A stretch of DNA of 64,000 nucleotides from the NCBI GenBank assembly GCA_050295955.1, contig JBNKQQ010000033.1, forward strand, positions 76,988 through 140,987. Direction: 5' to 3'. The position numbers and the translations under genes were made by a program. Within the stretch, counting starts at the first letter, position 1, and each line of letters begins with the position of its first letter. This document shows positions 3,323 to 36,482 of the stretch, piece by piece. Below the pieces are notes generated by a model. That model was not told the DNA's origin. It saw only the letters and a program-made list of their open reading frames with translations, and searched no databases. This DNA is from Thiohalomonadales bacterium. Its GTDB lineage: Bacteria > Pseudomonadota > Gammaproteobacteria > RBG-16-57-12.

Positions 3323-3380
3323 GATTTTGCTACGTAATAATTTTGGTTTTTTGGTTTTACTTTTTAAATTTATAAATTAA

Positions 3381-3692
<312 letters not shown>

Positions 3693-3746
3693 TTTGAGCA
3701 AACATTGCTAGCTCAATCGGGTTAAGCAAACCGAGGAGAAAGAACA

Positions 3747-9199: not shown

Positions 9200-10564
9200 A
9201 TGCAAAAACTCTCTGTTGTGATCCTGGCTGCCGGCCAGGGAACCCGCATGAAATCCCATCTTCCCAAGGTCTTACACTGCGTAGGTGATCGCTCAATGCT
9301 TGAACATGCCTATGACCGTGCCAAAGCACTAAAAGCCAATGACATTCATATCGTGTATGGACATGGTGGTGAGCAGGTCAAAGCCACGCTAGCCCATCTT
9401 GACGCCGAATGGGTACTACAAGCAGAGCAGAAAGGAACAGGTCATGCCGTCGAGCAGGCTATGCCTGCCATCAGTGATGACGAGATGGTTTTGGTGCTAT
9501 ATGGCGATGTGCCTCTGGTCAGAGTTGAAACGCTGCAAGCGCTAGTTGAAGAGGCGAAGCAGAGCGGTTTCAGTTTGCTGACCGCATTCTTGGATAACCC
9601 TACCGGCTATGGCCGCATCATTCGTGATGAACAGGGGGCTGTAACACGCATTGTTGAGCAGAAAGATGCAACCCCTGAAGAATTGGCGGTGACGGAAGTT
9701 AATACCGGCATGCTGGCGGTTCAGGCAGGACGCTTACGGAAATGGATTCATGCGCTGGATAACAACAATGCCCAGGGTGAATTTTACCTGACAGACGTAA
9801 TTGGTATGGCGGCTACCTCGGGTGTCAAAATTAATACGGTCCACCCTACAACGATTGATGAAACGCTTGGCGCGAATAACCGGGTTCAGCTAGCGGAACT
9901 GGAGCGTTTTTTACAGCAACGTATCGCCAACGAATTAATGCTGGCAGGCGTTACTCTACGGGATCCGAACCGACTGGATGTTCGTGGAAATCTAACCGCT
10001 GGACAAGATGTCGAGATCGATATCAACGGCTTGTTTGAAGGCGAAGTGAAACTTGGTAATAACGTAAAGATTGGCGCTAACTGTATCCTGCGCAATTGCA
10101 CTATCGGTGATAATACAGTGATTGAAGCGAACTCACTGATCGAGAAAAGTGAAGTGGCCAGTGATTGTCATATCGGGCCTTTTGCGCGCTTGAGACCTGA
10201 TAGTAAACTTCATTCCGGTGCTAAGATAGGCAATTTTGTTGAAGTGAAGAAGTCCGTCATTGGTGCTGGCTCTAAGGTCAATCACCTAAGTTATATCGGA
10301 GATACAACCATGGGAGCCAACGTCAATATTGGTGCGGGTACCATCACCTGTAACTATGACGGCGTGAATAAATTCCAAACAATAATTGGGGATAATGCCT
10401 TTATCGGCTCCGACAGTCAGCTAGTTGCCCCAGTTGAAGTGGGCTCAGGCGCGACGATCGGCGCGGGTACCACATTAACCCGAAATGCCCCTGCTGATAC
10501 ACTAACCCTTAGTCGTAGTAAGCAGAAAAGTATAAACAGTTGGCAACGTCCAACTAAGAAGTAG
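9200..10564 (+). CDS. glmU: bifunctional UDP-GlcNAc pyrophosphorylase / GlcN-1-P acetyltransferase
   Basis: The N-terminal nucleotidyltransferase has LAAGQGTRMKS, and the C-terminal part is a left-handed beta-helix of hexapeptide repeats. Confidence 0.95.
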   Translation: MQKLSVVILAAGQGTRMKSHLPKVLHCVGDRSMLEHAYDRAKALKANDIHIVYGHGGEQVKATLAHLDAEWVLQAEQKGTGHAVEQAMPAISDDEMVLVLYGDVPLVRVETLQALVEEAKQSGFSLLTAFLDNPTGYGRIIRDEQGAVTRIVEQKDATPEELAVTEVNTGMLAVQAGRLRKWIHALDNNNAQGEFYLTDVIGMAATSGVKINTVHPTTIDETLGANNRVQLAELERFLQQRIANELMLAGVTLRDPNRLDVRGNLTAGQDVEIDINGLFEGEVKLGNNVKIGANCILRNCTIGDNTVIEANSLIEKSEVASDCHIGPFARLRPDSKLHSGAKIGNFVEVKKSVIGAGSKVNHLSYIGDTTMGANVNIGAGTITCNYDGVNKFQTIIGDNAFIGSDSQLVAPVEVGSGATIGAGTTLTRNAPADTLTLSRSKQKSINSWQRPTKK

Positions 10565-10580: not shown

Positions 10581-12413
10581 ATGTGCGGGATCGTTGGTGC
10601 AGTGGCTGAACGTGATGTCACACCCATTTTGATAGAAGGGCTACGACGTCTGGAGTATCGAGGCTATGACTCTGCCGGGGTGGCAGTGTTGGATGAAGAG
10701 GGTTGTATCCGTCGAACCCGTGTTAAAGGGAAAGTGGCAGGATTGGCAGAAGCTATGCCAGAAGGCTTCAAAGGGGCAACGGGGATTGCCCATACCCGCT
10801 GGGCAACCCATGGTGAGCCTAGCCAAAGCAACGCCCACCCTCATATCTGCCGTGATCGTGTTGCGGTAGTGCACAACGGCATTATCGAAAACTACGAAGC
10901 CCTGCGAGAAGAGCAGAAAGCGCAAGGTCACCGCTTCACCTCCCAGACCGATACCGAAGTGATCGTACATCAGGTCTACAACTACCACAGTGACAACGGA
11001 CAGGATCTACTTGCTGCTGTGCAGAGTACTATCAAAGACTTACGTGGTGCCTATGCACTTGGTGTCATCAGCCATGACGAGCCAGGTCGTTTGATTGCCG
11101 CCCGAAGTGGCAGCCCACTGGTGGTTGGTGTCGGTATTGGTGAGTATTTCATTGCCTCCGATGTAGCCGCACTGCTTCCGGTAACCCAGCAATTTATCTT
11201 CCTGGAAGAGGGGGATGTAGCGGATATTAGCCGTGATGCCATCACCATCTATAACAAGCAGGGTGAGCAGGTAGAACGTCCTCTAAAGCGAAGCGAACTC
11301 ACCGCAGATGCTGTAGAGCGCGGTGAATTCCGCCACTACATGATAAAAGAGATTCACGAGCAGCCACGAGCCATTGCCGACACCTTAGAAGGGCGTATCT
11401 CAGAAACCCGTTTGCTGGAAGAGAGTTTTGGACCTAAAGCGGCTGAAATGCTCAACGGTGTTGAGCATGTCTACATCATCGCCTGTGGCACCTCATACCA
11501 TGCAGGTATGGTAGCTCGCTACTGGATTGAATCCATGGCGCGCATACCCTGCACTGTTGAAGTGGCCAGCGAGTTTCGCTATCGCAATCCAGTTGTACCC
11601 AACAACTGCCTGGTAATTTTTATCTCCCAGTCCGGTGAAACCGCTGACACCTTGGCCGCTTTGCGGGAGATCAGCGAAATGGGTATCCAGCGGACCCTGG
11701 CGATCTGCAATGTGCCAGAAAGCTCATTGGTGCGGGAAGCGGCACTGTCATTGATGACACGCGCAGGCCCAGAGATCGGTGTGGCATCCACTAAAGCATT
11801 TACCACCCAGCTGGTTGCTTTGCTGATGGTGACCATTGCGATTGCACGCCGTGGAAACCTGACAGAGCCGCAGGAAGCCGCCATCGTTAAAGAGCTGCGT
11901 ACACTGCCACGCAAAATAGAAGATGCACTACAGCTGGACAAAGCCATCTGTGAAATATCAGAACAGTTTGCAGATAAGCAACATGCCCTGTTTTTAGGGC
12001 GTGGCAATCAATATCCCATCGCCATGGAAGGGGCGCTAAAGCTAAAAGAGATCTCCTATATCCATGCGGAATCCTATCCTGCAGGCGAGCTGAAACACGG
12101 GCCATTAGCATTGGTAGATTCAGAAATGCCCGTCATCGTTGTTGCCCCCAATAACGAACTGTTAGAAAAGTTAAAAGCCAACATGCAAGAAGTAAAAGCC
12201 CGTGGCGGTAAGCTATTGGTATTTGCGGATCGCGAAGCGGCAATGGAGCAGGATGAAGGAATCCAAGTGCTGGATGTAGCACCAACAGATGACATCATTT
12301 CACCCATCATCTTCTCTGTACCGCTACAGCTGCTTTCCTATCACGTAGCTGTGCTGAAAGGCACAGATGTTGATCAGCCACGCAACTTAGCTAAGAGCGT
12401 AACTGTGGAGTAA
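10581..12413 (+). CDS. glmS: glutamine--fructose-6-phosphate aminotransferase
   Basis: The N-terminus MCGIVGAV has the Cys2 of a Ntn amidotransferase, and there are two SIS domains. It ends in the conserved VTVE. Confidence 0.97.
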
Positions 12414-12414
12414 G

Positions 12415-12476
12415 GGCGGGCACTGCCCGCCGGCATTGGCTGAATCAAGAGCCTTAGAGGTGATACATCTCTAAGG
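12415..12476 (+). terminator. glmS terminator (two hairpins, second followed by a T-run)
   Basis: The sequence gggcgggcactgcccgcc is followed by gccttagaggtgatacatctctaaggctttttt. Confidence 0.8.
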
Positions 12477-12530
12477 CTTTTTTATTGCCCAATTATCATT
12501 ATCAAAATAGAGGTACCCATGCTTTTATTT
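12415..12530. repeat. direct repeat copy A1 (glmS terminator region), paired with 14093..14215
   Basis: It is about 115 bp and roughly 85% identical to 14093..14215 by hand alignment. The shared stretch is cattgg(c/t)t(g/-)aatcaagagccttagaggtgat(a)catctctaaggctttttt...atcaaaatagaggta. Confidence 0.8.
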
Positions 12531-12829
12531 ATTTCCACCACGATAGGATGTGTGCCACTAGGTGACGCTGAATAGATGCTCGGTTCTGCCGGTACGACCA
12601 GCCCACTTTTGCAGGCTAAGCCTGCCATCTACTCCACAAATGGGTTGCCATACAAGGAAACAGACAAAGCATATCAATGGCATTGCATATATTCATGATT
12701 GCGCTACGCTATAAATGTATAAAGTGGACAAAAAAAGAGACATATATTTTCAAGTAAATATATAAGTAACTGAATTTTAATATTTTATTTAAAATAAAAA
12801 GTGGACATTTTTAGGGTCATATATCAGTA

Positions 12830-13987
12830 ATGGGTAGCAAGCAACAGCATCGTGTAGAAACTGATCGTTTCGGGCCTTTTACCTTTCAAGTTGGCGTTGA
12901 TACGTTATCTTTGGAGAGTTTGCTATTGCGTGTGGATGATGCCCACCAACGTTTCAAAAGCTCCCCCTTATCTCAAGTGGCTAATCGCCTGGAAAAAGAG
13001 GTGGTGGTTAGCAGTATCTTTGGCACCAATACCATAGAAGGTGGCACCCTTTCGATGGAGGAGACAGAGCAAGCACTGGATCTCCCGCCCTCTCAAGTAC
13101 AAGGTATTGAACAGCGCCGAGCTATCAATTTAAAGTGTGCCTATGAATTGGCACAAACCGCAGCAGTGCAACCAGGCTGGCAACTGAATATCGATTTTAT
13201 AAGAGAGATTCATGCCGCAGTGACTGATCAACTCCCCCATGAATACAACATGCCAGGAGTACTTAGGGATAATCCCAAAGGGACCATGACACGTGTAGGC
13301 AACCAAGAGCATGGAGGTGTTTACAAACCCCCTCAATATGGCAAAGATGTGGAAAGCCTGTTGAAGCATTTGATTGAATGGCATCAGCAGTTGATAGCAC
13401 AGGGAGTCTCAGTATTAATACGTGCACCGCTGGTGCATCTCTATTACGAATTGATCCATCCTTTCTGGGATGGTAACGGCCGGGTAGGCAGGGTGTTAGA
13501 GGCAACGTTACTACAGGCAGAGGGTTATAAATACGCACCCTTTGCCCAGGCGCGTTACTATCTTGAGAACATTCATCACTACTTCAGCCTATTCAATGCT
13601 TGTCGCAAGCAGGCGGAGAAAAACGCAGAAACTCCCAATACCGCGTTTGTTGCTTTTTTCCTTGAAGGGATGTTGAGCAGTATAAATACCCTGCATGACA
13701 GGGTGAACGCATTAATCAGCCTGATCCTATTTGAGAATGAAATAAAACGCCTGCACGATGAAAAGATCATAAACACCCGGCAATATGCCATCGTCACACA
13801 AATTCTTATAGCCGGAAAGCCGGTTTTTCTACCAGAATTAAGAAAATCTCCTTGGTACCAAGCGCTCTATATCAAGCTAACAGATAAAACCAAACAGCGG
13901 GACCTGAAGCATTTGCGAGAATTGGCATTGGTGAGATTAGATAGTGCTAATCGGTTATGGCCTGGATGTGTTGAAGAGGAGATGTAG
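12830..13987 (+). CDS. Fic-family protein (class II, with N-terminal inhibitory motif)
   Basis: It has the Fic active-site motif HPFWDGNGRVGR and an upstream TNTIEG matching the (S/T)xxxE(G/N) inhibitory helix. It is preceded by an AT-rich promoter-like region. Confidence 0.85.
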   Translation: MGSKQQHRVETDRFGPFTFQVGVDTLSLESLLLRVDDAHQRFKSSPLSQVANRLEKEVVVSSIFGTNTIEGGTLSMEETEQALDLPPSQVQGIEQRRAINLKCAYELAQTAAVQPGWQLNIDFIREIHAAVTDQLPHEYNMPGVLRDNPKGTMTRVGNQEHGGVYKPPQYGKDVESLLKHLIEWHQQLIAQGVSVLIRAPLVHLYYELIHPFWDGNGRVGRVLEATLLQAEGYKYAPFAQARYYLENIHHYFSLFNACRKQAEKNAETPNTAFVAFFLEGMLSSINTLHDRVNALISLILFENEIKRLHDEKIINTRQYAIVTQILIAGKPVFLPELRKSPWYQALYIKLTDKTKQRDLKHLRELALVRLDSANRLWPGCVEEEM

Positions 13988-14092
13988 ACGTTATCATTTT
14001 AGGGAGATGAATTGATATCGCTATATTTGGTGGAGCAGAGTGACGGTATTCAAGTATTGGATGTCGACCATCCTTGTAACTTAGTGGAGTAG

Positions 14093-14215
14093 GGGGGCAT
14101 CGCCCACCAGCATTGGTTAATCAAGAGCCTTAGAGGTGATCATCTCTAAGGCTTTTTTGTTGCTCGAAGCACCTCATAAGCTGCCAAATTTTCACCATCA
14201 AAATAGAGGTATTCA
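14093..14215. repeat. direct repeat copy A2 (second copy of the glmS terminator region)
   Basis: It is a near-duplicate of 12415..12530 and includes the same terminator hairpin gccttagaggtgatcatctctaaggctttttt. Confidence 0.8.
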
Positions 14216-14380
14216 AGGTGATATTTTTTAAGGTAATGTCTAGGGTAAGGGATTTTGTTCACCACCATTGCGATGAGGGAGATGATGGGCACGGGGAATA
14301 AGGATGGTGATTTTCTAGTATTGTGGGAGCCTCCTGCTTGCAGGCGATTGGGTTTGTTTCAGCAAACGCTGGAGGAATTG

Positions 14381-14690
14381 TATCACTGCGTGATGGTTTG
14401 TATTTATCGCTAGCGCGATGGAGGGGATGTCACTGCGTGACGGTGAATTGATACAGGGTTTCGCCCCCGCGCGACGAGTTCATTTTCTGTAACGCGACAG
14501 AAAACGAAACCAAAAGAACGCGCCCGAAAATACAGGTCACAAACAACGCGACTTCCCTCAGTTCTCGCTACGAATGGTACTACTGGCAACTGATTCGGGA
14601 CAGACATGCCATCCGCTTAACCCATTCGTAGCTGTGAGCCTCGGCTGCATTTAAACGGGATGTGAAAGGCATTTTATGTTTTGCTAATGC
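14381..14690. repeat. left inverted repeat (IR-L) of the STAND/recombinase element
   Basis: Its reverse complement aligns with 19685..19930. There is a ~100-bp near-identical core (cgacgagtt.attttctgtaacgcgacagaaaacgaaaccaaaagaac...cccgaaaatacaggtc) plus further similar flanks. The outer end carries two copies of tcactgcgtga, at 14383 and 14430. Confidence 0.8.
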
Positions 14691-14754
14691 AAAAGAAGAA
14701 GAGCGGCTTCGCGGTGTTTAATGGCTGGTTCTACTTCAGAGCGGACAAATTGAT

Positions 14755-14815
14755 GTAGGGTGGGCATCGCCCACCAGCGAGATGGAACGGTGGGCCGTGC
14801 CCACCCTATATGGCT
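14755..14815. repeat. REP-like palindromic element (tagggtgggcatcgcccacc ... ggtgggccgtgcccacccta)
   Basis: It is a long near-perfect palindrome. Related half-sites occur at 14093-14112 and 36536-36570. Confidence 0.6.
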
Positions 14816-15012
14816 GAAAAACCCGTTGGAGCCTTTGGTAGCTGATTGATTGAATGTCAGCTATCGGGTAGAGGGCAGCAAAGTCGCGAAAGCTGCCATT
14901 TATGACTTCATCTACAAATAAATAATTTGTGCCCAGCTATTTGGCACAATGCACTTTCAATATTAGGCTCAGCTAATGACAATTAGATTGTTATCTTACA
15001 AGGCAATACTTT

Positions 15013-18000
15013 ATGAATAGTCTCTGGGCTGTCCCAATATCGTCAGTTATTTCGCTTAGCCCTGAGCGGGCTGTAGATGTAATCCGTGCTATTCTCCGGG
15101 CAGAATGTGCCTACGCCAAGCTAGGCCCATCGGCATTAACTATTTCCGATAGACTAATGACCCCAGATGGCGGTATCGATGCAGAAGTCAACACATCCCA
15201 TGGACAAATCCCGGGAGATTGTATTTTTCAATCTGGTATTACCGGATTTCAGATTAAATCAGGAACCACATTCAAGCCTTGGACATCGAATTCAATCAGA
15301 GGTGAATTACTTAATAGTAAAGGGGAGTTATGCTCTGAGGTTGAGAGGCTTCTTAAACGAAAAGGTCACTACTCGATTATTTGCACTGGCCACGATCTGA
15401 CACCAGAGCAGCGTAATGATGCAAAAGCTCTGATCGTGGCTGTTCTGGCAGAAAAAGGATATGAAGAATACGAGCAGATTGTCGATGTTCTCGGAGCAAG
15501 TCAAATCGCAGAATTTTCTGAGCGCTATCCTGGAATAGCATCTCTATTGACGATTGATCCCGTTCAGGAAGCCTGGACTCTTGATGAGTGGCGACATGAC
15601 GCTCATATGACAAACGCATTCGAAGAGTCTCCGAAACAGACTGAAATAATCTCCCATATCCGCGCAGGCCTGTTGGGAGAAACTAAACATATTCGTATTC
15701 TTGGGGAAGCTGGCTTAGGTAAGACTCGAATCGTTCTTGAGTCATTGAAAGATGAGACCACCTCACCCTATGTTCTTTATATACAGCATGGTTCTCAGTT
15801 TGGTCAGACAAAACTTTTTCGCCAGTTACTGAAATCTGGTCATGACAAACCACTCATATTGGTCATAGATGAACTTCCTGAGAGCGAACTCTCAGATATA
15901 TGGAGGCATCTAAAGCCACGCTGTGGTCATTTGAAAATTGTTTCAATGGATCATGGACGAGATGAAACACGCGATGAAGAAATTGATCGAATAAATACGC
16001 CATATCTGTCAGACGATACAATTAAAAAGATACTTGCCCATCGCGTTGGGGAATCACCAGAGCTAGATCGGTGGATCAAAATCTGCGAAGGATCACCCCG
16101 AGTAGCCCAAGCCGTTGCTGACAATCTGTGCGCTAATCCCGCCGACTTATTAAAGCCACCAGCTACGATACCCATTTGGACAAGGTTTCTTCATGGATAT
16201 GGAAGCAGGGATGAAGCAAGTGCAAGGCAAATTGATTGTGTTGCACAGCATTTAGCACTATTCAGTCGGTTTGGTTATGAAGCTCCAGTTGGAGAGGAAG
16301 CAGCGTATATTGCTGAACTAATTCGCAATATTGACCCAACTATTGGCTGGGCTCGCTTTCAAGAAATAGTACAAGACCTTCGTGCGCGAAGAGTGTTACA
16401 AGGTAGTCGAACGCTATTTTTCGTTCCCAAGGCCCTGCATATCTATTTGTGGAAACAATTTTGGGAGCGTTATGGTCGAGGGTTTGATTTTACTCGAACA
16501 TTTTCCTCCATGCCGGAGTCTCTGCATACTTGGTTTATGAATATGTTCAAATATGCGGGTGAGGCTGATACTGCTCATGTTATTGATGATATTCTTAACT
16601 TAAAAGGCATTTTCTCTCAAAATGAGGTCATAAAATCAGAAAAGGGATCTCAGTTTCTAGCCATTCTAGCAGAGGCTAGTCCTGCTTCAGTATTGAGACT
16701 TCTTGAAGCTACTATTGGAAAATGGACTAACGAAGAATTGTTGAAATTAAGGGGAAATAGACAACATTTCGTCTGGACACTTGAGAAGATTGCGGTTTGG
16801 CCGAGCTACACTGTTAGAGCAATGCAACTGCTAATCCGATTGGCGGTTAATGAAAATGCTAGAAATTCTAATAACTCTACGGGAACGCTACTTGGCCTCT
16901 TTCGCATAGGCCCTGAGTGGGCTGCAACGGAATCCTCCCCTGATGCAAGACTCCCAGCTTTTCTGAAACTTCTTCGAGCTCAGAGTGATGCTGAGCGACA
17001 TCTTGGACTTAAAGCTGCAGAAGCATCGCTCGAAACCCGTGGCATGGGGTTTAGAACCGTTGGCCCTGAGTATCAGGGTTTAAAAGAAAGAGCAAAATTA
17101 TGGATGCCCGAAACATATGGTGATTGGTGGCAAGCTCAGTTCGTTTATTTTCAGACTTTGGTTAATGAAACAAAAAATTGGCCATCTCATCTTCGTCCTG
17201 AAGTTTGTAATGCATTACTTAATGCTGTTGAACACCAGATAAGAATACCACTATGTACGGAGCTAGCTTTTCAGGTACTAGATACACTTGTTAATGATGA
17301 TGCAATGCTGCCAGAAAAGTTAAATAGTTTCTTTTGGCATTGGAGAGAATATAAGGATGATGGTAAACATCCTGCAATAACAAAGAGACTACAAATACTT
17401 GAACGCCGCTACACGAGGCGTGACTTAGTAAGTCGATTTAATCGTTATGTGCTTGATGTGGATTGGCTCGAGTGGGAAGAGGGGCGTAGAGAGCAGAGAG
17501 GAAAGACTAGATCACGTGCAAAGGTAATTGTAAAAGTTTTGGCTCGCCGTATAGCGCGATCTCCTGAGAAGTTTAATGAAATTCGTCATCTTATTACTCC
17601 AGAGAAAAGTGCTCATGGGTTATGGTTTTTTGGAGAGCAGCTTGCAAAAAACGATGCTGATAGAATTTTTTTACCTCAACTCATTGAGGCTACCCTTACG
17701 GCTAAACACCAAACCTGTTTATACGGTTATCTTTCTGAATTAAGGAAAGACAATGAAGAGCTATACACTACAGCTATTAATGGTTTTCTTGATTCGGAAA
17801 GCACTGCTTGGTTAGGGGGACATATTGTACTTAGCTCCGATTACGATGATGATTTGTTTGTGAAGTGCTTGAATGTATTGCGTAAGGAATGGATTTCTCC
17901 CCAAGAGTTCAGCTCACTTCGATATGGGAAGTCAATAGATCACGTTCCTAAGGAACGGCTAGAAAATTTATTTCAACAATTAAATTCCCGTCAATCTGAG

Positions 18001-18786
18001 GAGTCTATGTGTTTATTGATCGAGTTACTGGACTCGATTCCATTTAACGAGTCCTCTCCAGTTGATTCAAAATTTGTATTTGGAGCGGTATCACGGTTTG
18101 TGCCTGGTGATGAAGGCGCAGAGCTAATGAGGGGATATCACTGGAAAAGTGTATGTCAAAAGTTAATTAAGTGGGATGAAAGCTGTGTATTACCTTTACT
18201 TGACGTTTTGCTTACTAAGATGGGAGACGTATATCGGTTAAGCTATGACTCGGATGTTGAGCCTCTTTCGGCCGAGTTAGTACAAGCAAATCCTTCAGGT
18301 GCTTGGGGAATTATAAAAGTGCATTTCGAAGAGACTCTCCCAAAATGGCGAGGTGATCTATTGAACTGGCTTAAAGGAGGGGTAGGAGGGTTTGAAGAAA
18401 GAGAGACTAGAGGAGTAATAAGGGATTTACCACTTCAGGAAATCCTTGAGTGGATAAATGAAAACCCTGAGTCTAGGGCTGGCCTTATAGCTCATGCTGT
18501 TCCTAGAACACTCGATGACGTAAACGGAGGAGAACTTACACGTGAGTTACTTCGTAAATACGGGCAGCTTCCCGGAGTTCAAAGCGGTATTAGTGCTAAT
18601 TTCCACTCTGGAGGGTGGAGTGGACCTACAAGTGCATATTTGAAACGTAAGAGGGAGAAATTTCGTCGATGGTTGGCTGCTGGATTTGATTATGAGATAA
18701 CTCAGTGGATTGAATCAGAGATTGAATACCTTGACCGAAATATAGAGCGCGAGGAAATTGATGAGGAACGCTCTCGATTCGATTAG
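15013..18786 (+). CDS. Avs-like antiviral STAND NTPase candidate with N-terminal Mrr-like (PD-(D/E)xK) nuclease domain
   Basis: The N-terminus has DGGIDAEV ... GFQIK, an Mrr_cat-like D...QxK motif. It has a Walker A ILGEAGLGKTR and a Walker B PLILVIDELPE. About 800 aa of helical C-terminus follows, which is probably a repeat/sensor region. Confidence 0.6.
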   Translation: MNSLWAVPISSVISLSPERAVDVIRAILRAECAYAKLGPSALTISDRLMTPDGGIDAEVNTSHGQIPGDCIFQSGITGFQIKSGTTFKPWTSNSIRGELLNSKGELCSEVERLLKRKGHYSIICTGHDLTPEQRNDAKALIVAVLAEKGYEEYEQIVDVLGASQIAEFSERYPGIASLLTIDPVQEAWTLDEWRHDAHMTNAFEESPKQTEIISHIRAGLLGETKHIRILGEAGLGKTRIVLESLKDETTSPYVLYIQHGSQFGQTKLFRQLLKSGHDKPLILVIDELPESELSDIWRHLKPRCGHLKIVSMDHGRDETRDEEIDRINTPYLSDDTIKKILAHRVGESPELDRWIKICEGSPRVAQAVADNLCANPADLLKPPATIPIWTRFLHGYGSRDEASARQIDCVAQHLALFSRFGYEAPVGEEAAYIAELIRNIDPTIGWARFQEIVQDLRARRVLQGSRTLFFVPKALHIYLWKQFWERYGRGFDFTRTFSSMPESLHTWFMNMFKYAGEADTAHVIDDILNLKGIFSQNEVIKSEKGSQFLAILAEASPASVLRLLEATIGKWTNEELLKLRGNRQHFVWTLEKIAVWPSYTVRAMQLLIRLAVNENARNSNNSTGTLLGLFRIGPEWAATESSPDARLPAFLKLLRAQSDAERHLGLKAAEASLETRGMGFRTVGPEYQGLKERAKLWMPETYGDWWQAQFVYFQTLVNETKNWPSHLRPEVCNALLNAVEHQIRIPLCTELAFQVLDTLVNDDAMLPEKLNSFFWHWREYKDDGKHPAITKRLQILERRYTRRDLVSRFNRYVLDVDWLEWEEGRREQRGKTRSRAKVIVKVLARRIARSPEKFNEIRHLITPEKSAHGLWFFGEQLAKNDADRIFLPQLIEATLTAKHQTCLYGYLSELRKDNEELYTTAINGFLDSESTAWLGGHIVLSSDYDDDLFVKCLNVLRKEWISPQEFSSLRYGKSIDHVPKERLENLFQQLNSRQSEESMCLLIELLDSIPFNESSPVDSKFVFGAVSRFVPGDEGAELMRGYHWKSVCQKLIKWDESCVLPLLDVLLTKMGDVYRLSYDSDVEPLSAELVQANPSGAWGIIKVHFEETLPKWRGDLLNWLKGGVGGFEERETRGVIRDLPLQEILEWINENPESRAGLIAHAVPRTLDDVNGGELTRELLRKYGQLPGVQSGISANFHSGGWSGPTSAYLKRKREKFRRWLAAGFDYEITQWIESEIEYLDRNIEREEIDEERSRFD

Positions 18787-18904: not shown

Positions 18905-19558
18905 TTAGACCTCTATCCTCTCTGATATTTCTAGTGCATCATCCACCTCAATCCCCAGATACCTGACAGTACTCTCTAGCTTGGTATGACCGAGGAGCAA
19001 TTGAATGGCTCTCAAGTTATGAGTTTGGTGGTAAATCAGCGATACCTTCGTCCTGCGCAATGAGTGAGTTCCATAATCAGCAGGATCTAGTCCTATATCA
19101 GTGACCCACTGCTCAACTATCCTGGCATATTGGCGAGTTGAGATATGAGGTGAATCATGAAAGCGACTTTGAAAGAGATAGTCATCATATTTCAAGGTCT
19201 GATGTGCTATCAGATTTGTTACTGCTATTCTCGTCTGATCAGTGATTTCAAATTGAACAGGCTGCTTGGTTTTCTGTTGCATGATCATGGCTCTTTTCAA
19301 TATAGATAAACCATGTGAGATGTCGCTGACTTTTAGGCTTACTAGGTCACAGCCCCGTAGCTTACTGTCGATGGCTAAATTGAATAGTGCGAGATCCCGG
19401 ATGTTGTTTGCCAGCTGAAGTCGTATGCGAATAGCCCAGATCTCTTGAAGCTTGAAGGGAAGTTTCTGCCCAACGAGCTTTCCTTTGTTCCAAGGGGAAT
19501 GGGGAGATGTTGATAGAGTGCTCATGTTGAATCCTCCATTTTGGTTTAGGGGATTCAA
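18905..19558 (-). CDS. short tyrosine site-specific recombinase (FimB/FimE-size, phage-integrase family catalytic domain)
   Basis: It is 217 aa. It has HSLRRT and LLGHTKLESTVRYL, consistent with the R...HxxR...Y catalytic residues, and it lacks the long N-terminal arm-binding domain of integrases. Confidence 0.75.
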   Translation of the reverse strand: MNPLNQNGGFNMSTLSTSPHSPWNKGKLVGQKLPFKLQEIWAIRIRLQLANNIRDLALFNLAIDSKLRGCDLVSLKVSDISHGLSILKRAMIMQQKTKQPVQFEITDQTRIAVTNLIAHQTLKYDDYLFQSRFHDSPHISTRQYARIVEQWVTDIGLDPADYGTHSLRRTKVSLIYHQTHNLRAIQLLLGHTKLESTVRYLGIEVDDALEISERIEV

Positions 19559-19684
19559 AGTATGGTAAAACAGAGGCTTACTTTCAGAGCGGACGTTCAG
19601 GGATTGTTGATGAACTACGCCTGCTGGCCGCTTGCGGCCATTTAATTTATATTGAAAATTCGCTCTTCTTCTTTCGTGTTAATG

Positions 19685-19930
19685 AAATATAAAATGACTT
19701 TCCTATCCCGTTCCAATGAAGCCGAGGCCCGCAGAAATCCTTGAATTAAGCCTTCGCTTGTTTGAGCGGTATTTGCGACCTGTATTTTCGGGTATGTTCT
19801 TTTGGTTTCGTTTTCTGTCGCGTTACAGAAAATAAACTCGTCGTGTGGGAACGAAACCCCCCATCAATACACATCACGAAGTGATACAAAATCTCATCGC
19901 CATAGTGATGAATTAAAAACATCGCTTACA
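19685..19930. repeat. right inverted repeat (IR-R) of the STAND/recombinase element
   Basis: It is the reverse complement of IR-L. The outer end carries tcacgaagtga and agtgatg motifs that mirror the paired 11-bp motifs in IR-L. Confidence 0.8.
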
Positions 19931-30135: not shown

Positions 30136-31905
30136 ATGTTGATTAATGGAAAGCGCCCCAACTTTTTGCTTATCACTACCGACGAAGAACGATACCCACC
30201 TGTTTATGAAAACCCCGAAGCAAAGGCCTACCGATTGGAGCACAGTAAAGCCATCAGGCGCATGTGTAGCCAGGGGATGCGCTTTACCAACCACTATACC
30301 GCTAGCACCGCCTGCGCACCCAGCCGAGCTTCCATCTATACCGGTCAGTACCCTTCGCTACACGGTGTAAGCCAAACGCCAGGCATTGGCAAATCTTCAT
30401 TTGATGAAAATATGTTCTGGCTGGAGCCCAATACGGTGCCTACCCTGGGTAACTATTTCCGCACTGCAGGCTATCAAACCTGGTACCACGGCAAGTGGCA
30501 TATCTCTTACGAGGATATCGACGTACCCGGTACACAGACTGGCCTACTCAGTAACGACATCAACGGAAACCCCTTTCCAGAGCGCATACGTCTCTATGGT
30601 GAATCAAACCGCCTGGATAAATTCGGTTTTGATGGCTGGATTGGTCCCGAGCCACACGGTGCTCTACAGCAAAACGATGGTACCGCCCGGGACCCAGGCT
30701 TCGCGGATCAAGTCTGTCGTACCTTAAAACATCTGGATCAACAGGCGCAGCAGGGGGATGACACACCGTTCCTGTTAGTTTCCTCCTTCCTCAATCCCCA
30801 CGATATTGTTTTGGCGGGGCAGTTACAGGCGTCCTGGTTCCCAGAATTTCAACAGGCACAGGCAAACGGTACGCTGCCAAAAGTGGATAAAGCTCCCACC
30901 GCCGACGAACCCCTGGCCAGCAAGCCCCGCTGCCAACAGGACTATCGTTATACCTATCCACGCATGTATCTGCCGCAGATGGATAACGAAACCTATCGCC
31001 AGTTCTACTACTTCCTAATGGCCCAGGTGAACACCCATATCGATAAAGTCTACGCCACACTACAAGGAACCTCTTTCGCGGATAACACCATCGTGGTGTT
31101 CTTCTCCGACCACGGCGAAATGCTGGGCGCCCACGGCGGCCTGCATCAGAAGTGGTACAACGCCTACCAAGAGACAATCCACGTACCCTTCATTGTCTCC
31201 AATCCCATACTCTTTGACGGTGCTAAAGAGAGCGATGTGCCTACTTCACATGTAGACCTGTTGCCTACGTTACTGGGCTTGGCTGATATCGACCAGGAAC
31301 AGGCTCGTAAAACGTTATCGGAAAACCACAGCGAAGCGCGGCCACTGGTAGGCAAAGACTTATCAGAACTGATTGCGAATGGTAAAAAAGTGGATGACGA
31401 AACTATCTACTTCTGCACCGATGACAATGTGGAAGTAGGCGAACAGATGAACAATCCCGTTACTGGCGTTGCCTACAATGCCATTATTCAACCCAAGCAT
31501 ATCGAAACCGTAGTGACCCGGCTGCCCAAGCTCACTGGCGACACCCTATGGAAATACTCCCGCTACTTCGATAATCCCCGTTTCTACGCCACCAGCGGAG
31601 CAATATCCACAGTCGCTACCAATAACGGAAACCTCCTAGGCGCGCTCCCTGCCACCGGCAATCCCGACGGCATTACTACCGCACGCTTCATCCCACCAGA
31701 ATATGAGTGCTACAACCTCAATGAAGATCCACTGGAAGAGATCAACCTCATGTCACCAGTCTCCACCAAAAAGTTAGACAAAAAAATCCACCAGGCACTG
31801 GAACAAGTACTCCACCAACAACGGGAAGCCAAACGCCTCCTCCCCCATACCCTAAACGACCAACAAGAGATCGCACAAAAGATAGAAGTTCCAATACGGA
31901 ATTAG
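30136..31905 (+). CDS. sulfatase (formylglycine-dependent, arylsulfatase family)
   Basis: It has the CAPSRASIYTG (C-x-P-x-R) formylglycine motif. No obvious signal peptide is present. Confidence 0.88.
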   Translation: MLINGKRPNFLLITTDEERYPPVYENPEAKAYRLEHSKAIRRMCSQGMRFTNHYTASTACAPSRASIYTGQYPSLHGVSQTPGIGKSSFDENMFWLEPNTVPTLGNYFRTAGYQTWYHGKWHISYEDIDVPGTQTGLLSNDINGNPFPERIRLYGESNRLDKFGFDGWIGPEPHGALQQNDGTARDPGFADQVCRTLKHLDQQAQQGDDTPFLLVSSFLNPHDIVLAGQLQASWFPEFQQAQANGTLPKVDKAPTADEPLASKPRCQQDYRYTYPRMYLPQMDNETYRQFYYFLMAQVNTHIDKVYATLQGTSFADNTIVVFFSDHGEMLGAHGGLHQKWYNAYQETIHVPFIVSNPILFDGAKESDVPTSHVDLLPTLLGLADIDQEQARKTLSENHSEARPLVGKDLSELIANGKKVDDETIYFCTDDNVEVGEQMNNPVTGVAYNAIIQPKHIETVVTRLPKLTGDTLWKYSRYFDNPRFYATSGAISTVATNNGNLLGALPATGNPDGITTARFIPPEYECYNLNEDPLEEINLMSPVSTKKLDKKIHQALEQVLHQQREAKRLLPHTLNDQQEIAQKIEVPIRN

Positions 31906-31955
31906 GGACTTCTGCAGAAGTTTCCAGGATAGAGAGCCGGCGAAAGCCGGCTTTA
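31861..31955. repeat. direct repeat copy B1 (sulfatase 3' end + terminator hairpin), paired with 32647..32745
   Basis: The sequence caacaagaga...gaagttccaatacggaattagggacttctgcagaagtttccaggatagagagccggcgaaagccggcttt recurs after parE with about 88% identity. Confidence 0.8.
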
Positions 31956-32026
31956 TAACAACATATGTATATTATTGACAATTTGTTGTTTGTAGATATG
32001 CTTATATGTATGACATATAGAGCGAG

Positions 32027-32293
32027 GTGTATCTTATGCGTCTTTCCATTGAAATAACCCCAGAACAACATCAAAAACTAAAGGCCATTGCCGCTCTGCA
32101 AGGTAAAACCATCAAAGACTACGTTCTTGAGCGTTCGTTACCCAACTTTGGGGATGATGACAGTAAGGCTCTGGAAGCGCTAGAGAACTTCCTCAAACCT
32201 AGAGTTAAAGCGGCAAAGAATGGTGATTTCTCAGAAAAATCAGTGAGCGATATATTTGACGAGATTGAGAAGGGGGATGACTCCCAGCAATGA
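32027..32293 (+). CDS. type II antitoxin, ParD/RHH-like
   Basis: It is an 88-aa RHH-type protein (MRLSIEITPEQHQKLKAIAALQGKTIKDYV) that is translationally coupled (caATGA) to the toxin gene. Confidence 0.75.
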   Translation: MYLMRLSIEITPEQHQKLKAIAALQGKTIKDYVLERSLPNFGDDDSKALEALENFLKPRVKAAKNGDFSEKSVSDIFDEIEKGDDSQQ

Positions 32294-32598
32294 CTTCATA
32301 TCGTTTAACGAAAGATGCAGAAAATGACCTGAGAAGTATCGCCCGCTACACACTAGATAATCACGGCAGCAAACAACTTCAGCTATACCGAAGCAAGCTT
32401 GAGGCTAAATTCTTAGAGATAGCTGAAGGGACAGTGATAGCCAAATCATTCTCCTTAAATATACCCGAAGTTCTCGTTACAAGATGTGAGCATCACTTTG
32501 TGTTTTTCCTCTCAGGCAACCCAGCCATCATCATTGCGATTCTTCACGAAAAAATGGACATGATTTCACGTTTAGGGAAGCGCTTAGATAATGAGTGA
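32290..32598 (+). CDS. type II toxin, ParE/RelE family
   Basis: It is a 102-aa protein with a ParE-like N-terminus (YRLTKDAENDLRSIARYT), and its start overlaps the antitoxin stop. Confidence 0.8.
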   Translation: MTSYRLTKDAENDLRSIARYTLDNHGSKQLQLYRSKLEAKFLEIAEGTVIAKSFSLNIPEVLVTRCEHHFVFFLSGNPAIIIAILHEKMDMISRLGKRLDNE

Positions 32599-32646
32599 TG
32601 GTTACTAATGTTAAATAGACTAATCAAGGTAGATATCCTCAATAAC

Positions 32647-32745
32647 CAACAAGAGAGGGTGCAGAAAATCGAAGTGCCAATACGGGATTAGGGACTGCTT
32701 CAGAAGTTTCCAGGAAAGAGAGCCGGCGAAAGCCGGCTTTTTTAT
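32647..32745. repeat. direct repeat copy B2 (relic of sulfatase 3' end + terminator)
   Basis: It translates in the equivalent frame to QQERVQKIEVPIRD*, compared with the sulfatase C-terminus QQEIAQKIEVPIRN*. It ends in the same gccggcgaaagccggc hairpin, with a better T-run. Confidence 0.8.
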
Positions 32746-35917: not shown

Positions 35918-35975
35918 CATGTGAATAAGCCAAGTAGGGAGACACATTTTTTATGTCCACAGAAAAATGCTACAT
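35918..35975. repeat. direct repeat copy C1, paired with 36425..36482
   Basis: The sequence aagccaagtagggag(a/g)ca(c/t)atttttt(a/g)tg(t/c)ccac(a/g)gaaaaat is about 85% identical between the copies. Confidence 0.7.
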
Positions 35976-36063
35976 GACTTAAGTGCACTATCTGATATTA
36001 AAAAATAGGATCAATGGGAGATCTCATTGATTTATTGTTTTATTTAATTAAGGTTGATGAAAT

Positions 36064-36426
36064 ATGATGAAAAAGCTAATTATGCTAGTTTGTTTTATGA
36101 TGGTTACATGCTCTGCTTTTGCAGACCCTGTTAGTATCGCAAAAGGGACGGCAGCAAATTATACCGGAAAGATAGCAAGCGTTGGCGTTGGATTTTATGA
36201 ACATGTAGGAGTTCGTCTTTCCGGTGGTGACACTTGCCATGGAAGTAATATTATAGTTTTGCTTAATACTGACCCTCAATATAAAGAGATGTATTCTTTG
36301 CTACTTTCTGCATATACAACACAATCTGAGATAAACATCCATCAGTTAGGTGCTCAAGACTCGACTTTTGGGATTGGTTATTGCGTAATCAATTATATTT
36401 CACTTGGGGATTTCCCTAATTGGTAA
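36064..36426 (+). CDS. small secreted protein, unknown function
   Basis: It has the signal peptide MMKKLIMLVCFMMVTCSAFA and is 120 aa. It is bracketed by ~50-bp direct repeats. Confidence 0.5.
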   Translation: MMKKLIMLVCFMMVTCSAFADPVSIAKGTAANYTGKIASVGVGFYEHVGVRLSGGDTCHGSNIIVLLNTDPQYKEMYSLLLSAYTTQSEINIHQLGAQDSTFGIGYCVINYISLGDFPNW

Positions 36427-36482
36427 TCAAGCCAAGTAGGGAGGCATATTTTTTGTGCCCACGGAAAAATACCTCTTCATGA
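36425..36482. repeat. direct repeat copy C2
   Basis: See copy C1. Confidence 0.7.

Follow-up and report, generated by a model that had tools for sequence, protein, structure and literature searches.

We analysed a 64,000-nucleotide stretch of a Thiohalomonadales genome (assembly GCA_050295955.1, contig JBNKQQ010000033.1, positions 76,988 to 140,987 of the forward strand), referred to below as the window and numbered from its first base, in which a gene for a Fic-family protein lies directly downstream of glmS. The atp operon, glmU (9200–10564) and glmS (10581–12413) follow one another on the plus strand. The glmS open reading frame (ORF) encodes 610 amino acids and is intact, as judged from the ORF list, from full-length homologues at no more than 87% identity and from synteny with the nearest relative (L086). 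The Fic ORF (12830–13987, plus strand) encodes 385 amino acids. Its invariant motifs and the 77% A+T content (0.77) of the 130 bp upstream bear out the initial annotation, made from the sequence alone, which had placed a single Fic gene with a TNTIEG motif and an AT-rich promoter between two copies of a repeat. Also as annotated, the ORF list holds no tns gene and no integrase gene between these copies.

The sequence that follows the glmS stop codon is present twice. Positions 12414–12533 recur at 14092–14229 with 85% identity, and the Fic gene lies between them. In local alignment, 12399–12533 paired with 14076–14229; past the stop codon, 100 of the 117 aligned bases were identical (85%), in agreement with the identity first reported for a repeat that spans both hairpins, and the second copy contained 21 additional bases (14159–14175 and 14178–14181). 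The 22-mer AATCAAGAGCCTTAGAGGTGAT occurred exactly twice in the window and in none of 100 shuffled sequences, and a scan of a metagenome collection for exact matches to AATCAAGAGCCTTAGAGGTGAT returned none. Copy 1 (12399–12533, plus strand), delimited by alignment and folding, consists of the final 15 nt of glmS, hairpin 1 (12415–12431), hairpin 2 (12447–12481 plus a U-run) and about 50 nt beyond. The non-coding part of copy 2 (14093–14229, plus strand) consists of hairpin 1, an intact hairpin 2 (14123–14156), the 21-nt insertion and 48 nt downstream. In each copy, a GC-rich hairpin 1 is followed by a long, U-tailed hairpin 2, and both hairpins form upon folding (−42 kcal/mol and z = −5.8 for copy 1; −30.9 kcal/mol and z = −4.1 for copy 2), with one mismatch in hairpin 1 of copy 2. 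Hairpin 2, the U-tailed terminator, is alike at 41 of 42 positions between the copies, and the remainder is 77–80% identical. A 170-bp spacer (12534–12704, no strand assigned) separates copy 1 from the regulatory module of Fic; it had no match in the window or in the 185 loci that we fetched for comparison.

The duplication reaches further into glmS than had been described. The terminator stretch is duplicated as annotated, but the start given for the second copy, 14093, missed a decayed, displaced remnant of glmS 3′ coding sequence at 14020–14092 (plus strand). Read in frame, the remnant gives ..VEQSDGIQVLDV..NLVE*, which matches the GlmS C terminus and ends in a TAG stop codon at 14090–14092; it has internal deletions of ~17 and ~100 nt. 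Its nucleotide alignment score was 35, compared with a maximum of 26 in 2000 shuffles, and it also matched the glmS genes of two relatives (L090 and L091). The remnant is the most informative element of the locus. Because copy 2 contains this coding remnant, the duplicated unit is the glmS 3′ end with its terminator and ~50 nt more, not the terminator alone. The arrangement is an intact gene, an insert and a displaced 3′ stub, all in direct orientation. Because the copy 2 terminator is nearly unchanged and is the sole terminator-like site after Fic, its hairpin 2 probably now terminates Fic transcripts. A separate contig from the Logan assemblies, L001, carries the structure from 12414 to 14501 with 100% identity; this contig may share its sample with the window.

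The same architecture was found at a second gene in the window. On the plus strand at 31847–32740, a sulfatase 3′ end with two hairpins (31847–31954) is followed by a ParD/ParE-like gene pair (32027–32293 and 32290–32598) and then by a sulfatase 3′ remnant with hairpins (32633–32740). The repeat comprises the last 57 nt of the sulfatase gene and two hairpins; its copies aligned without gaps and were identical at 92 of 108 positions (85%). This alignment, found by comparing the window with itself, scored 136, whereas shuffles reached at most 32. In Shewanella algae, a 4.85-kb insert after guaA contains a homologue of the PD-Lambda-4-like gene found further downstream in the window; on either side of this insert is a 54-nt direct repeat (94% identity) made up in part of the last guaA codons and the guaA terminator.

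Fic genes elsewhere are bracketed in the same way. We fetched 80 further Fic-family loci from metagenomes, 71 of which had enough flanking sequence for a bracket test. In five of the 71, the Fic module lay closely between direct repeats of local origin (54–131 nt, 78–89% identity), compared with 0 of 145 control segments of equal size taken from these loci (p = 0.001). The repeated sequence is the 3′ end of the upstream ORF in L132, the 3′ end of a hutU-like gene in L168 and the 3′ half of a tRNA-Ala gene in L133, where an intact tRNA-Ala lies on the opposite side and the neighbours are housekeeping genes; L146 and L159 have hairpin-rich flanks with hairpins resembling repetitive extragenic palindromic (REP) elements. 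The order that marks 3′-end displacement was found at glmS, at the sulfatase gene and at other loci: the anchor gene is intact, the insert follows it, and a displaced 3′ remnant comes next in the same orientation. The cassette ends vary among loci: the left edge lies 150–300 nt upstream of the start codon and the right edge 5–117 nt past the stop codon. The ends of the Fic cassettes carried no terminal repeats, and no recombinase or transposase gene lay in or beside the bracketed cassettes (the one described here and those of L132, L133, L146, L159, L168 and L172). The initial annotation had proposed a site-specific or homology-guided insertion that regenerates its target. Insertion agrees with these data, and the homology-guided option is the one we favour; site specificity does not, given the sulfatase, tRNA-Ala and hutU-like targets and the finding that glmS lay beside Fic at none of 84 other Fic loci. 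Two further matches were rejected: the repeat at L160 is an operator box that recurs before the next gene and not a target duplication, and a match at L171 in the control run was an artefact of a truncated contig.

We next consider how the copies differ. Four coding pairs (glmS, sulfatase, L168 and L132; 100 codons in total) were compared by a simple Nei–Gojobori count. The proportion of synonymous differences (pS) was 0.47 and that of nonsynonymous differences (pN) was 0.09, giving a pN/pS of 0.20. The synonymous share of differences was 58%, compared with ~33% expected under in-place decay of one copy (P ~3e-4), and third codon positions held 32 of the 53 differences (60%; p = 0.012 against an in-place expectation of 0.44). 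At L133, the tRNA part of the repeat had 1 mismatch in 37 positions and the adjoining flank 5 in 17 (p = 0.009). No Fic-bracketing pair exceeded 89% identity. The excess at third positions together with the low pN/pS suggests that the copies acquired most of their differences when each was still the end of a functional gene, that is, in two genomes. Taken together, the sequences provide moderate evidence that the copies derive from two lineages and would have been diverged from birth. The differences were scattered along the repeats, and the longest identical runs (22, 24 and 30 nt) lay in hairpins or tRNA sequence, not at the 5′ edge, the expected place of an att core.

Comparison with the glmS genes of relatives bears on which copy is foreign. 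The remnant shares more states with the relatives' glmS than the resident end does, the TAG stop codon included (5:2 and 5:3), and the two are about equally close to the relatives overall (29 versus 27–28 of 37). Third-position identity between the resident glmS and L086 dropped from 0.45 to 0.33 over the last 192 nt (p = 0.08) and from 0.45 to 0.32 over the last 300 nt (p = 0.015). A mosaic test of glmS, based on third-position G+C content and third-position identity profiles, gave a weak 3′ dip at most. These results weakly suggest that the end in copy 1 is foreign and that the remnant is the former resident.

The explanation that we favour, to which we assign a probability of roughly 55%, is that a recombinase-less Fic unit, made up of promoter/operator and ORF, arrived by one-sided, homology-anchored recombination, either of the Campbell type or of the type known as homology-facilitated illegitimate recombination (HFIR). 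DNA from a diverged relative would have paired within glmS, bringing its own glmS 3′ end, terminator and attached cassette, and the far end of the import would have joined illegitimately ~190 nt short of the stop codon in the resident gene. In this way, the glmS 3′ end and terminator of the resident would have escaped replacement and been pushed downstream. glmS would have stayed whole, the displaced coding stub would have decayed, and the displaced terminator would have been kept since it would now serve Fic. Through repeated events of this kind, a defence island could grow away from glmS, its innermost layer being the most recent. Sequential displacement of the HFIR type has been proposed for effector–immunity modules of the type VI secretion system (T6SS) and for C-terminal displacement at rhs loci (PMC5361080), which offers a precedent for the mechanism proposed here. 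Direct observations are the locus anatomy, the remnant of coding sequence, the reappearance of the layout at other genes, the signature of selection and the lack of mobility genes; the recombination route and the polarity, that is, which copy is foreign, are what we infer.

Several points weigh against this explanation. Sequences that differ by ~20% undergo homologous recombination with very low efficiency. Random illegitimate joining would not be expected to place the right-hand joint within 5–37 nt of the Fic stop codon, as is the case in three loci. Neither a donor allele, with glmS followed by Fic, nor an empty site was found in the relatives and metagenomes searched, and the third-position dip at the glmS 3′ end was not significant in the comparison with L090. 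The selection tests are small, with 100 codons and 53 differences, and transition bias would soften them. Finally, an att-type element whose attP mimics the target 3′ end would give the same born-diverged signature.

Such an element is the basis of an alternative that we regard as unlikely. Here the cassette would be a remnant resembling a cis-mobilizable element (CIME), or a non-autonomous element, of a tyrosine-integrase island with an attP that mimics the glmS 3′ end; the repeats would be attL and attR, and the integrase would have been lost or would act in trans. Duplication of a gene 3′ end or of a tRNA 3′ half is the classic signature of an integrase, which the tRNA-Ala locus L133 fits exactly, and guaA, tRNA genes and glmS are classic island targets. 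The attP sites of phage 21 and e14 mimic the 3′ end of their target, icd, and such mimicry also predicts copies that are born diverged and differ mostly at synonymous sites. Tandem accretion of integrase-less elements has been documented, and a gene for a 217-amino-acid tyrosine recombinase lies 4.7 kb downstream. However, none of at least six bracketed cassettes has an integrase within or adjoining it, and independent decay to one gene every time would be unparsimonious. At least five targets for one cassette family would call for five site specificities, and the unrelated toxin–antitoxin cassette at the sulfatase gene has the same layout. The repeats lack an identical core at the 5′ edge, where an old core may have decayed, the cassette ends vary, and the nearby recombinase co-occurs with Fic in just 1 of 84 other loci.

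It is conceivable, although quite doubtful, that SoFic-like modules, perhaps together with the ParDE-like pair and the PD-Lambda-4-like gene, form a distinct class of recombinase-less cassettes. A dedicated process, more specific than sporadic illegitimate recombination, would bring them into the 3′ ends of tRNA and housekeeping genes and would leave diverged target duplications of 50–200 bp and a right joint a few bases from the cassette stop codon. Distinctly improbable, in our view, is that the repeats arose in place as a long target-site duplication or a local tandem duplication at insertion, for example through staggered breaks or template switching at hairpins. The repeats are local target sequence directly flanking the insert, their length, from 54 to ~210 nt, would fit an imprecise process, and most contain hairpins. 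Copies made in this way would have been identical at birth, whereas the codon-position and pN/pS patterns point to divergence mostly under purifying selection in both copies, the tRNA part of the L133 repeat is conserved and its flank is not, and no pair of repeats around a Fic gene is more than 89% identical.

Two further possibilities fare worse. A dispersed family of REP-like elements or terminators unrelated to insertion is most improbable: the hairpin motif GGTGGGC-NNN-GCCCACC does occur four times in the 64 kb (0.15 expected) and REP-like hairpins are present in the L146 and L159 repeats, but all four occurrences lie at 12.4–14.8 kb with none elsewhere in the window, the 22-mer is found only twice in the window and has no exact metagenome match, and copy 2, unlike a REP element, holds glmS coding sequence. 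An origin from a Tn7-like element or its remnant at the attTn7-equivalent site, the analogy drawn in the initial annotation, is effectively refuted: the position directly after glmS and beside the atp operon is the classic Tn7 context, but Tn7 insertion gives a 5-bp target duplication and copies neither terminator nor coding sequence, whereas here the direct repeats are 135–210 bp long at 85% identity and extend into the glmS coding sequence, the only inverted repeats of the cassette are its terminator hairpins and none is terminal, the ORFs at 12.4–50 kb tested with Pfam, NCBIfam or PADLOC gave no match to TnsA, TnsB, TnsC, TnsD or TnsE or to a DDE transposase, and genes besides glmS show this layout as well.

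One-sided recombination of the kind that we favour has its closest parallel in the displacement arrays of T6SS modules in Vibrio cholerae (PMC5361080) and of rhs loci. There, as here, a conserved gene upstream serves as the anchor for an incoming module, the former 3′ part survives downstream as an orphan, no recombinase takes part, and repeated events yield an ordered array in which the layer closest to the intact gene is the most recent. By contrast, the anchors here are housekeeping sequences (glmS, sulfatase, tRNA and guaA) where those arrays have a polymorphic toxin gene; what is displaced here is a 3′ stub without function, together with a reusable terminator, where theirs is an immunity gene; and the route is inferred. 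The 3′-end replacement brought about by integrase-borne elements, such as e14 and phage 21 in icd, islands at tRNA genes and ssrA, and CIMEs, likewise duplicates the target 3′ end directly, rebuilds the gene from the element, leaves mostly synonymous differences and allows tandem accretion; our locus differs in having no integrase, no recognizable identical core at the edge, variable ends and many targets per family. With Tn7 it shares a place directly downstream of glmS, a recognized cargo hotspot, but has no tns genes, no transposon ends and a duplication of 135–210 bp into the glmS coding sequence. The minimal mobile elements of Neisseria are similar in that cargo without mobility genes sits between conserved genes and is exchanged by host recombination. 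Those elements are swapped by transformation and homologous recombination with two clean crossovers and leave no duplicated 3′ stub, whereas the scar here implies one non-homologous end.

The Fic protein has the features of a class II AMPylase with an N-terminal inhibitory helix and a C-terminal helical/winged-helix region, and resembles SoFic. Its catalytic motif, HxFx(D/E)GNGRxxR, is present as HPFWDGNGRVGR (residues 210–221) and is invariant in 35 homologues. The inhibitory motif, (S/T)xxxE(G/N), lies N-terminal to the Fic core as GTNTIEGG (T66-N-T-I-E70-G71); T66, N67, I69, E70 and G71 are invariant in the same 35 homologues, and the motif falls within helix 55–69/76–83 of the predicted model. 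Profile searches matched Pfam Fic (1.8e-13) and PADLOC SoFic (4e-37, over residues 64–369). An AlphaFold model had a pLDDT (predicted local distance difference test score) of 90.1, and Foldseek aligned it over its full length (~365–387 columns) with SoFic (3eqx and 3zcn) and Coxiella Fic2 (8cil) at template modelling scores of 0.59–0.69, with values of ~0.6 for the two SoFic structures. The score against the NCBIfam SoFic equivalog NF046030 was 54.4 bits, far under the cut-off of 550, so the protein is not an orthologue of the characterized SoFic. Compared with SoFic of the Shewanella oneidensis SO_4266 type, in which one Fic gene makes up an anti-phage defence system, it has both motifs, the full-length architecture with the C-terminal domain and defence genes as neighbours, but is only ~20% identical and its gene has conserved tandem GGACAT-N6-GGACA boxes of its own. 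SoFic has been reported as a toxic AMPylase in abortive infection, and the E. coli system includes a small downstream antitoxin, AS1 (PMC12249575). No conserved small downstream antitoxin gene was seen at the Fic gene here, unlike the situation with AS1. By homology, the Fic protein is probably an autoinhibited AMPylase and may act as an abortive-infection toxin.

At three other loci (L082, L084 and L085), Fic lies directly upstream of defence-type genes, namely SIR2/DUF4020, SIR2, and DUF4007 with a BrxC/PglY-like protein. We considered the 1257-amino-acid protein encoded downstream of Fic in the window as a possible partner and rejected it: it has no similarity to the large proteins encoded after Fic in L082 and L084 and is PD-Lambda-4-like instead. 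The Fic family is nearly absent from viral contigs, where we found just three matches to short fragments, and from plasmids, where a search of 72,556 gave one distant match at 38.5% identity.

Upstream of Fic, an A+T-rich regulatory module (12705–12829, plus strand) contains two conserved boxes (12718–12747 and 12795–12824), and this layout is kept upstream of homologues. The family consensus is GGACAT-N6-GGACA, and the two-box layout was also present upstream of the Fic homologues in L082–L085. A box at about −31 was found in 69 of 76 Fic loci, against a background of 0.009 per 240 nt, and 35 of the 76 had two or more boxes, commonly with one near −110. The boxes thus travel together with the Fic gene. 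At L160, a GGACAT-N6-GGACA box also precedes the next downstream gene. It is possible that the C-terminal winged-helix domain of Fic binds the boxes, which would make the gene autoregulated. As a candidate conserved tandem operator, the boxes offer a direct handle on the regulation of the Fic family.

The region downstream of glmS is a variable hotspot, as relatives hold different cargo there. In the nearest relative (L086–L089; GlmS 87% identical in a protein search), parAB, atp, glmU and glmS are shared with the window, and synteny between L086 and the window returns only at 50.2–54.7 kb (brkB, patatin, ppa and dapF). The interval that extends from 12.4 to 50.2 kb in the window is represented in this relative by only ~1.9 kb of different cargo, which agrees with the earlier designation of the site as a cargo hotspot with Fic as its innermost layer; in a displacement series, the innermost layer is the newest. 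G+C content is 0.49–0.54 in the core flanks and mostly 0.40–0.47 from ~12.4 to ~47 kb, with some stretches of 0.50–0.53. Scans with Pfam, NCBIfam and PADLOC identified several defence-type genes in the hotspot, those for Fic, the PD-Lambda-4_A-like protein of 1257 amino acids, AbiLi/AbiLii and a HEPN-nucleotidyltransferase, and our best reading is that the Fic cassette lies in a defence island of roughly 38 kb. The window contained no Rfam family at gathering score and no tRNA gene. The L086 cargo 3′ of glmS (11834–13700) comprises a CdiI_2 immunity gene, a short segment between inverted repeats GGGGACAGACCACGGTTTCC and a cytochrome c′ gene; in a second relative, L090 (GlmS 85%), the start of an IS1595-like transposase gene follows glmS (3374–3735). 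The post-glmS DNA of these 87% and 85% relatives aligned with neither copy of the repeat, and a GTDB scan with GlmS, in which we sought a genome for an empty-site comparison, gave a best match of just 70% identity.

A third, partial copy of the repeat lies beyond the Fic cassette (14755–14778, plus strand). It consists of the stop codon and hairpin 1, GTAGGGTGGGCATCGCCCACCAGC, agrees with copy 2 at 23 of 24 positions and scored 41 against a shuffle maximum of 29. At 14755–14811, the stop codon and hairpin 1 are followed by a related second hairpin, GGTGGGCCGTGCCCACC, and the stretch folds with −42.8 kcal/mol (z = −5.9). This copy may be an older displaced remnant, although it lies inside the segment bounded by inverted repeats described below. 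Elsewhere in the window, a 42-nt direct repeat (35927–35968 and 36429–36470; 88% identity) flanks a 120-amino-acid ORF (36064–36426) with a hydrophobic N terminus that resembles a signal peptide; the right repeat begins 3 nt past the stop codon. The stretch from 35927 to 36470 is a possible third example of such a small cassette.

The segment next to the Fic cassette is bounded by long, imperfect inverted repeats (14392–14705 and 19661–19923; ~80% identity). Within each repeat lies a perfect palindrome, TTTCTGT-AACGCG-ACAGAAA, whose spacer is inverted in one relative to the other (14484–14503 and 19812–19831; 0.02 expected), and the Logan contig L001 ends inside the left palindromic core. The inverted repeats bracket the PD-Lambda-4-like gene and the gene for the 217-amino-acid tyrosine recombinase (18905–19558, minus strand), which makes the 5.3-kb segment between them a candidate invertible or mobile unit. 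None of the 185 fetched loci contained the palindromic core, not even L181–L185, which encode recombinase homologues. These short tyrosine recombinases (206–217 amino acids) form a very abundant and highly conserved family, for which a search gave 8000 matches; identity was 71–95% among the 120 matches listed, many of them on contigs of ~1 kb. In related strains, the recombinase gene and ~95 nt upstream are constant and the DNA beyond differs (L181 versus L183), which suggests that the recombinase sits at a rearrangement or insertion junction. We rejected this recombinase as the enzyme that inserted Fic, given an abundant family that co-occurs with Fic once and a palindromic core found in none of the 185 loci. 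The PD-Lambda-4_A-like gene (15010–18785) has copies in Shewanella algae and in metagenome-assembled genomes of Pseudomonadota (L172–L177) that match it at 88–92% DNA identity. Homology between these copies and the window runs from 3 nt upstream of the start codon to the stop codon, so the transfer was bounded by the ORF.

The locus thus joins known kinds of element, a SoFic-like gene and a 3′-end displacement scar, and the insertion scar around Fic is a real and fairly ordinary recombination scar; what is mildly surprising is its recurrence around one cassette family. It means that a defence gene can enter a core-genome hotspot without mobile-element machinery, and the scar records the direction and order of such events: if read in this way, the intact end would be the imported one, the stub the former resident and the innermost layer the newest. 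It also cautions that genes found after glmS are not automatically related to Tn7. The recurrence of bracketing repeats, in 5 of 71 Fic loci compared with 0 of 145 controls, suggests that 3′-end displacement is a regular route by which defence islands are seeded, and one that could be mined systematically.

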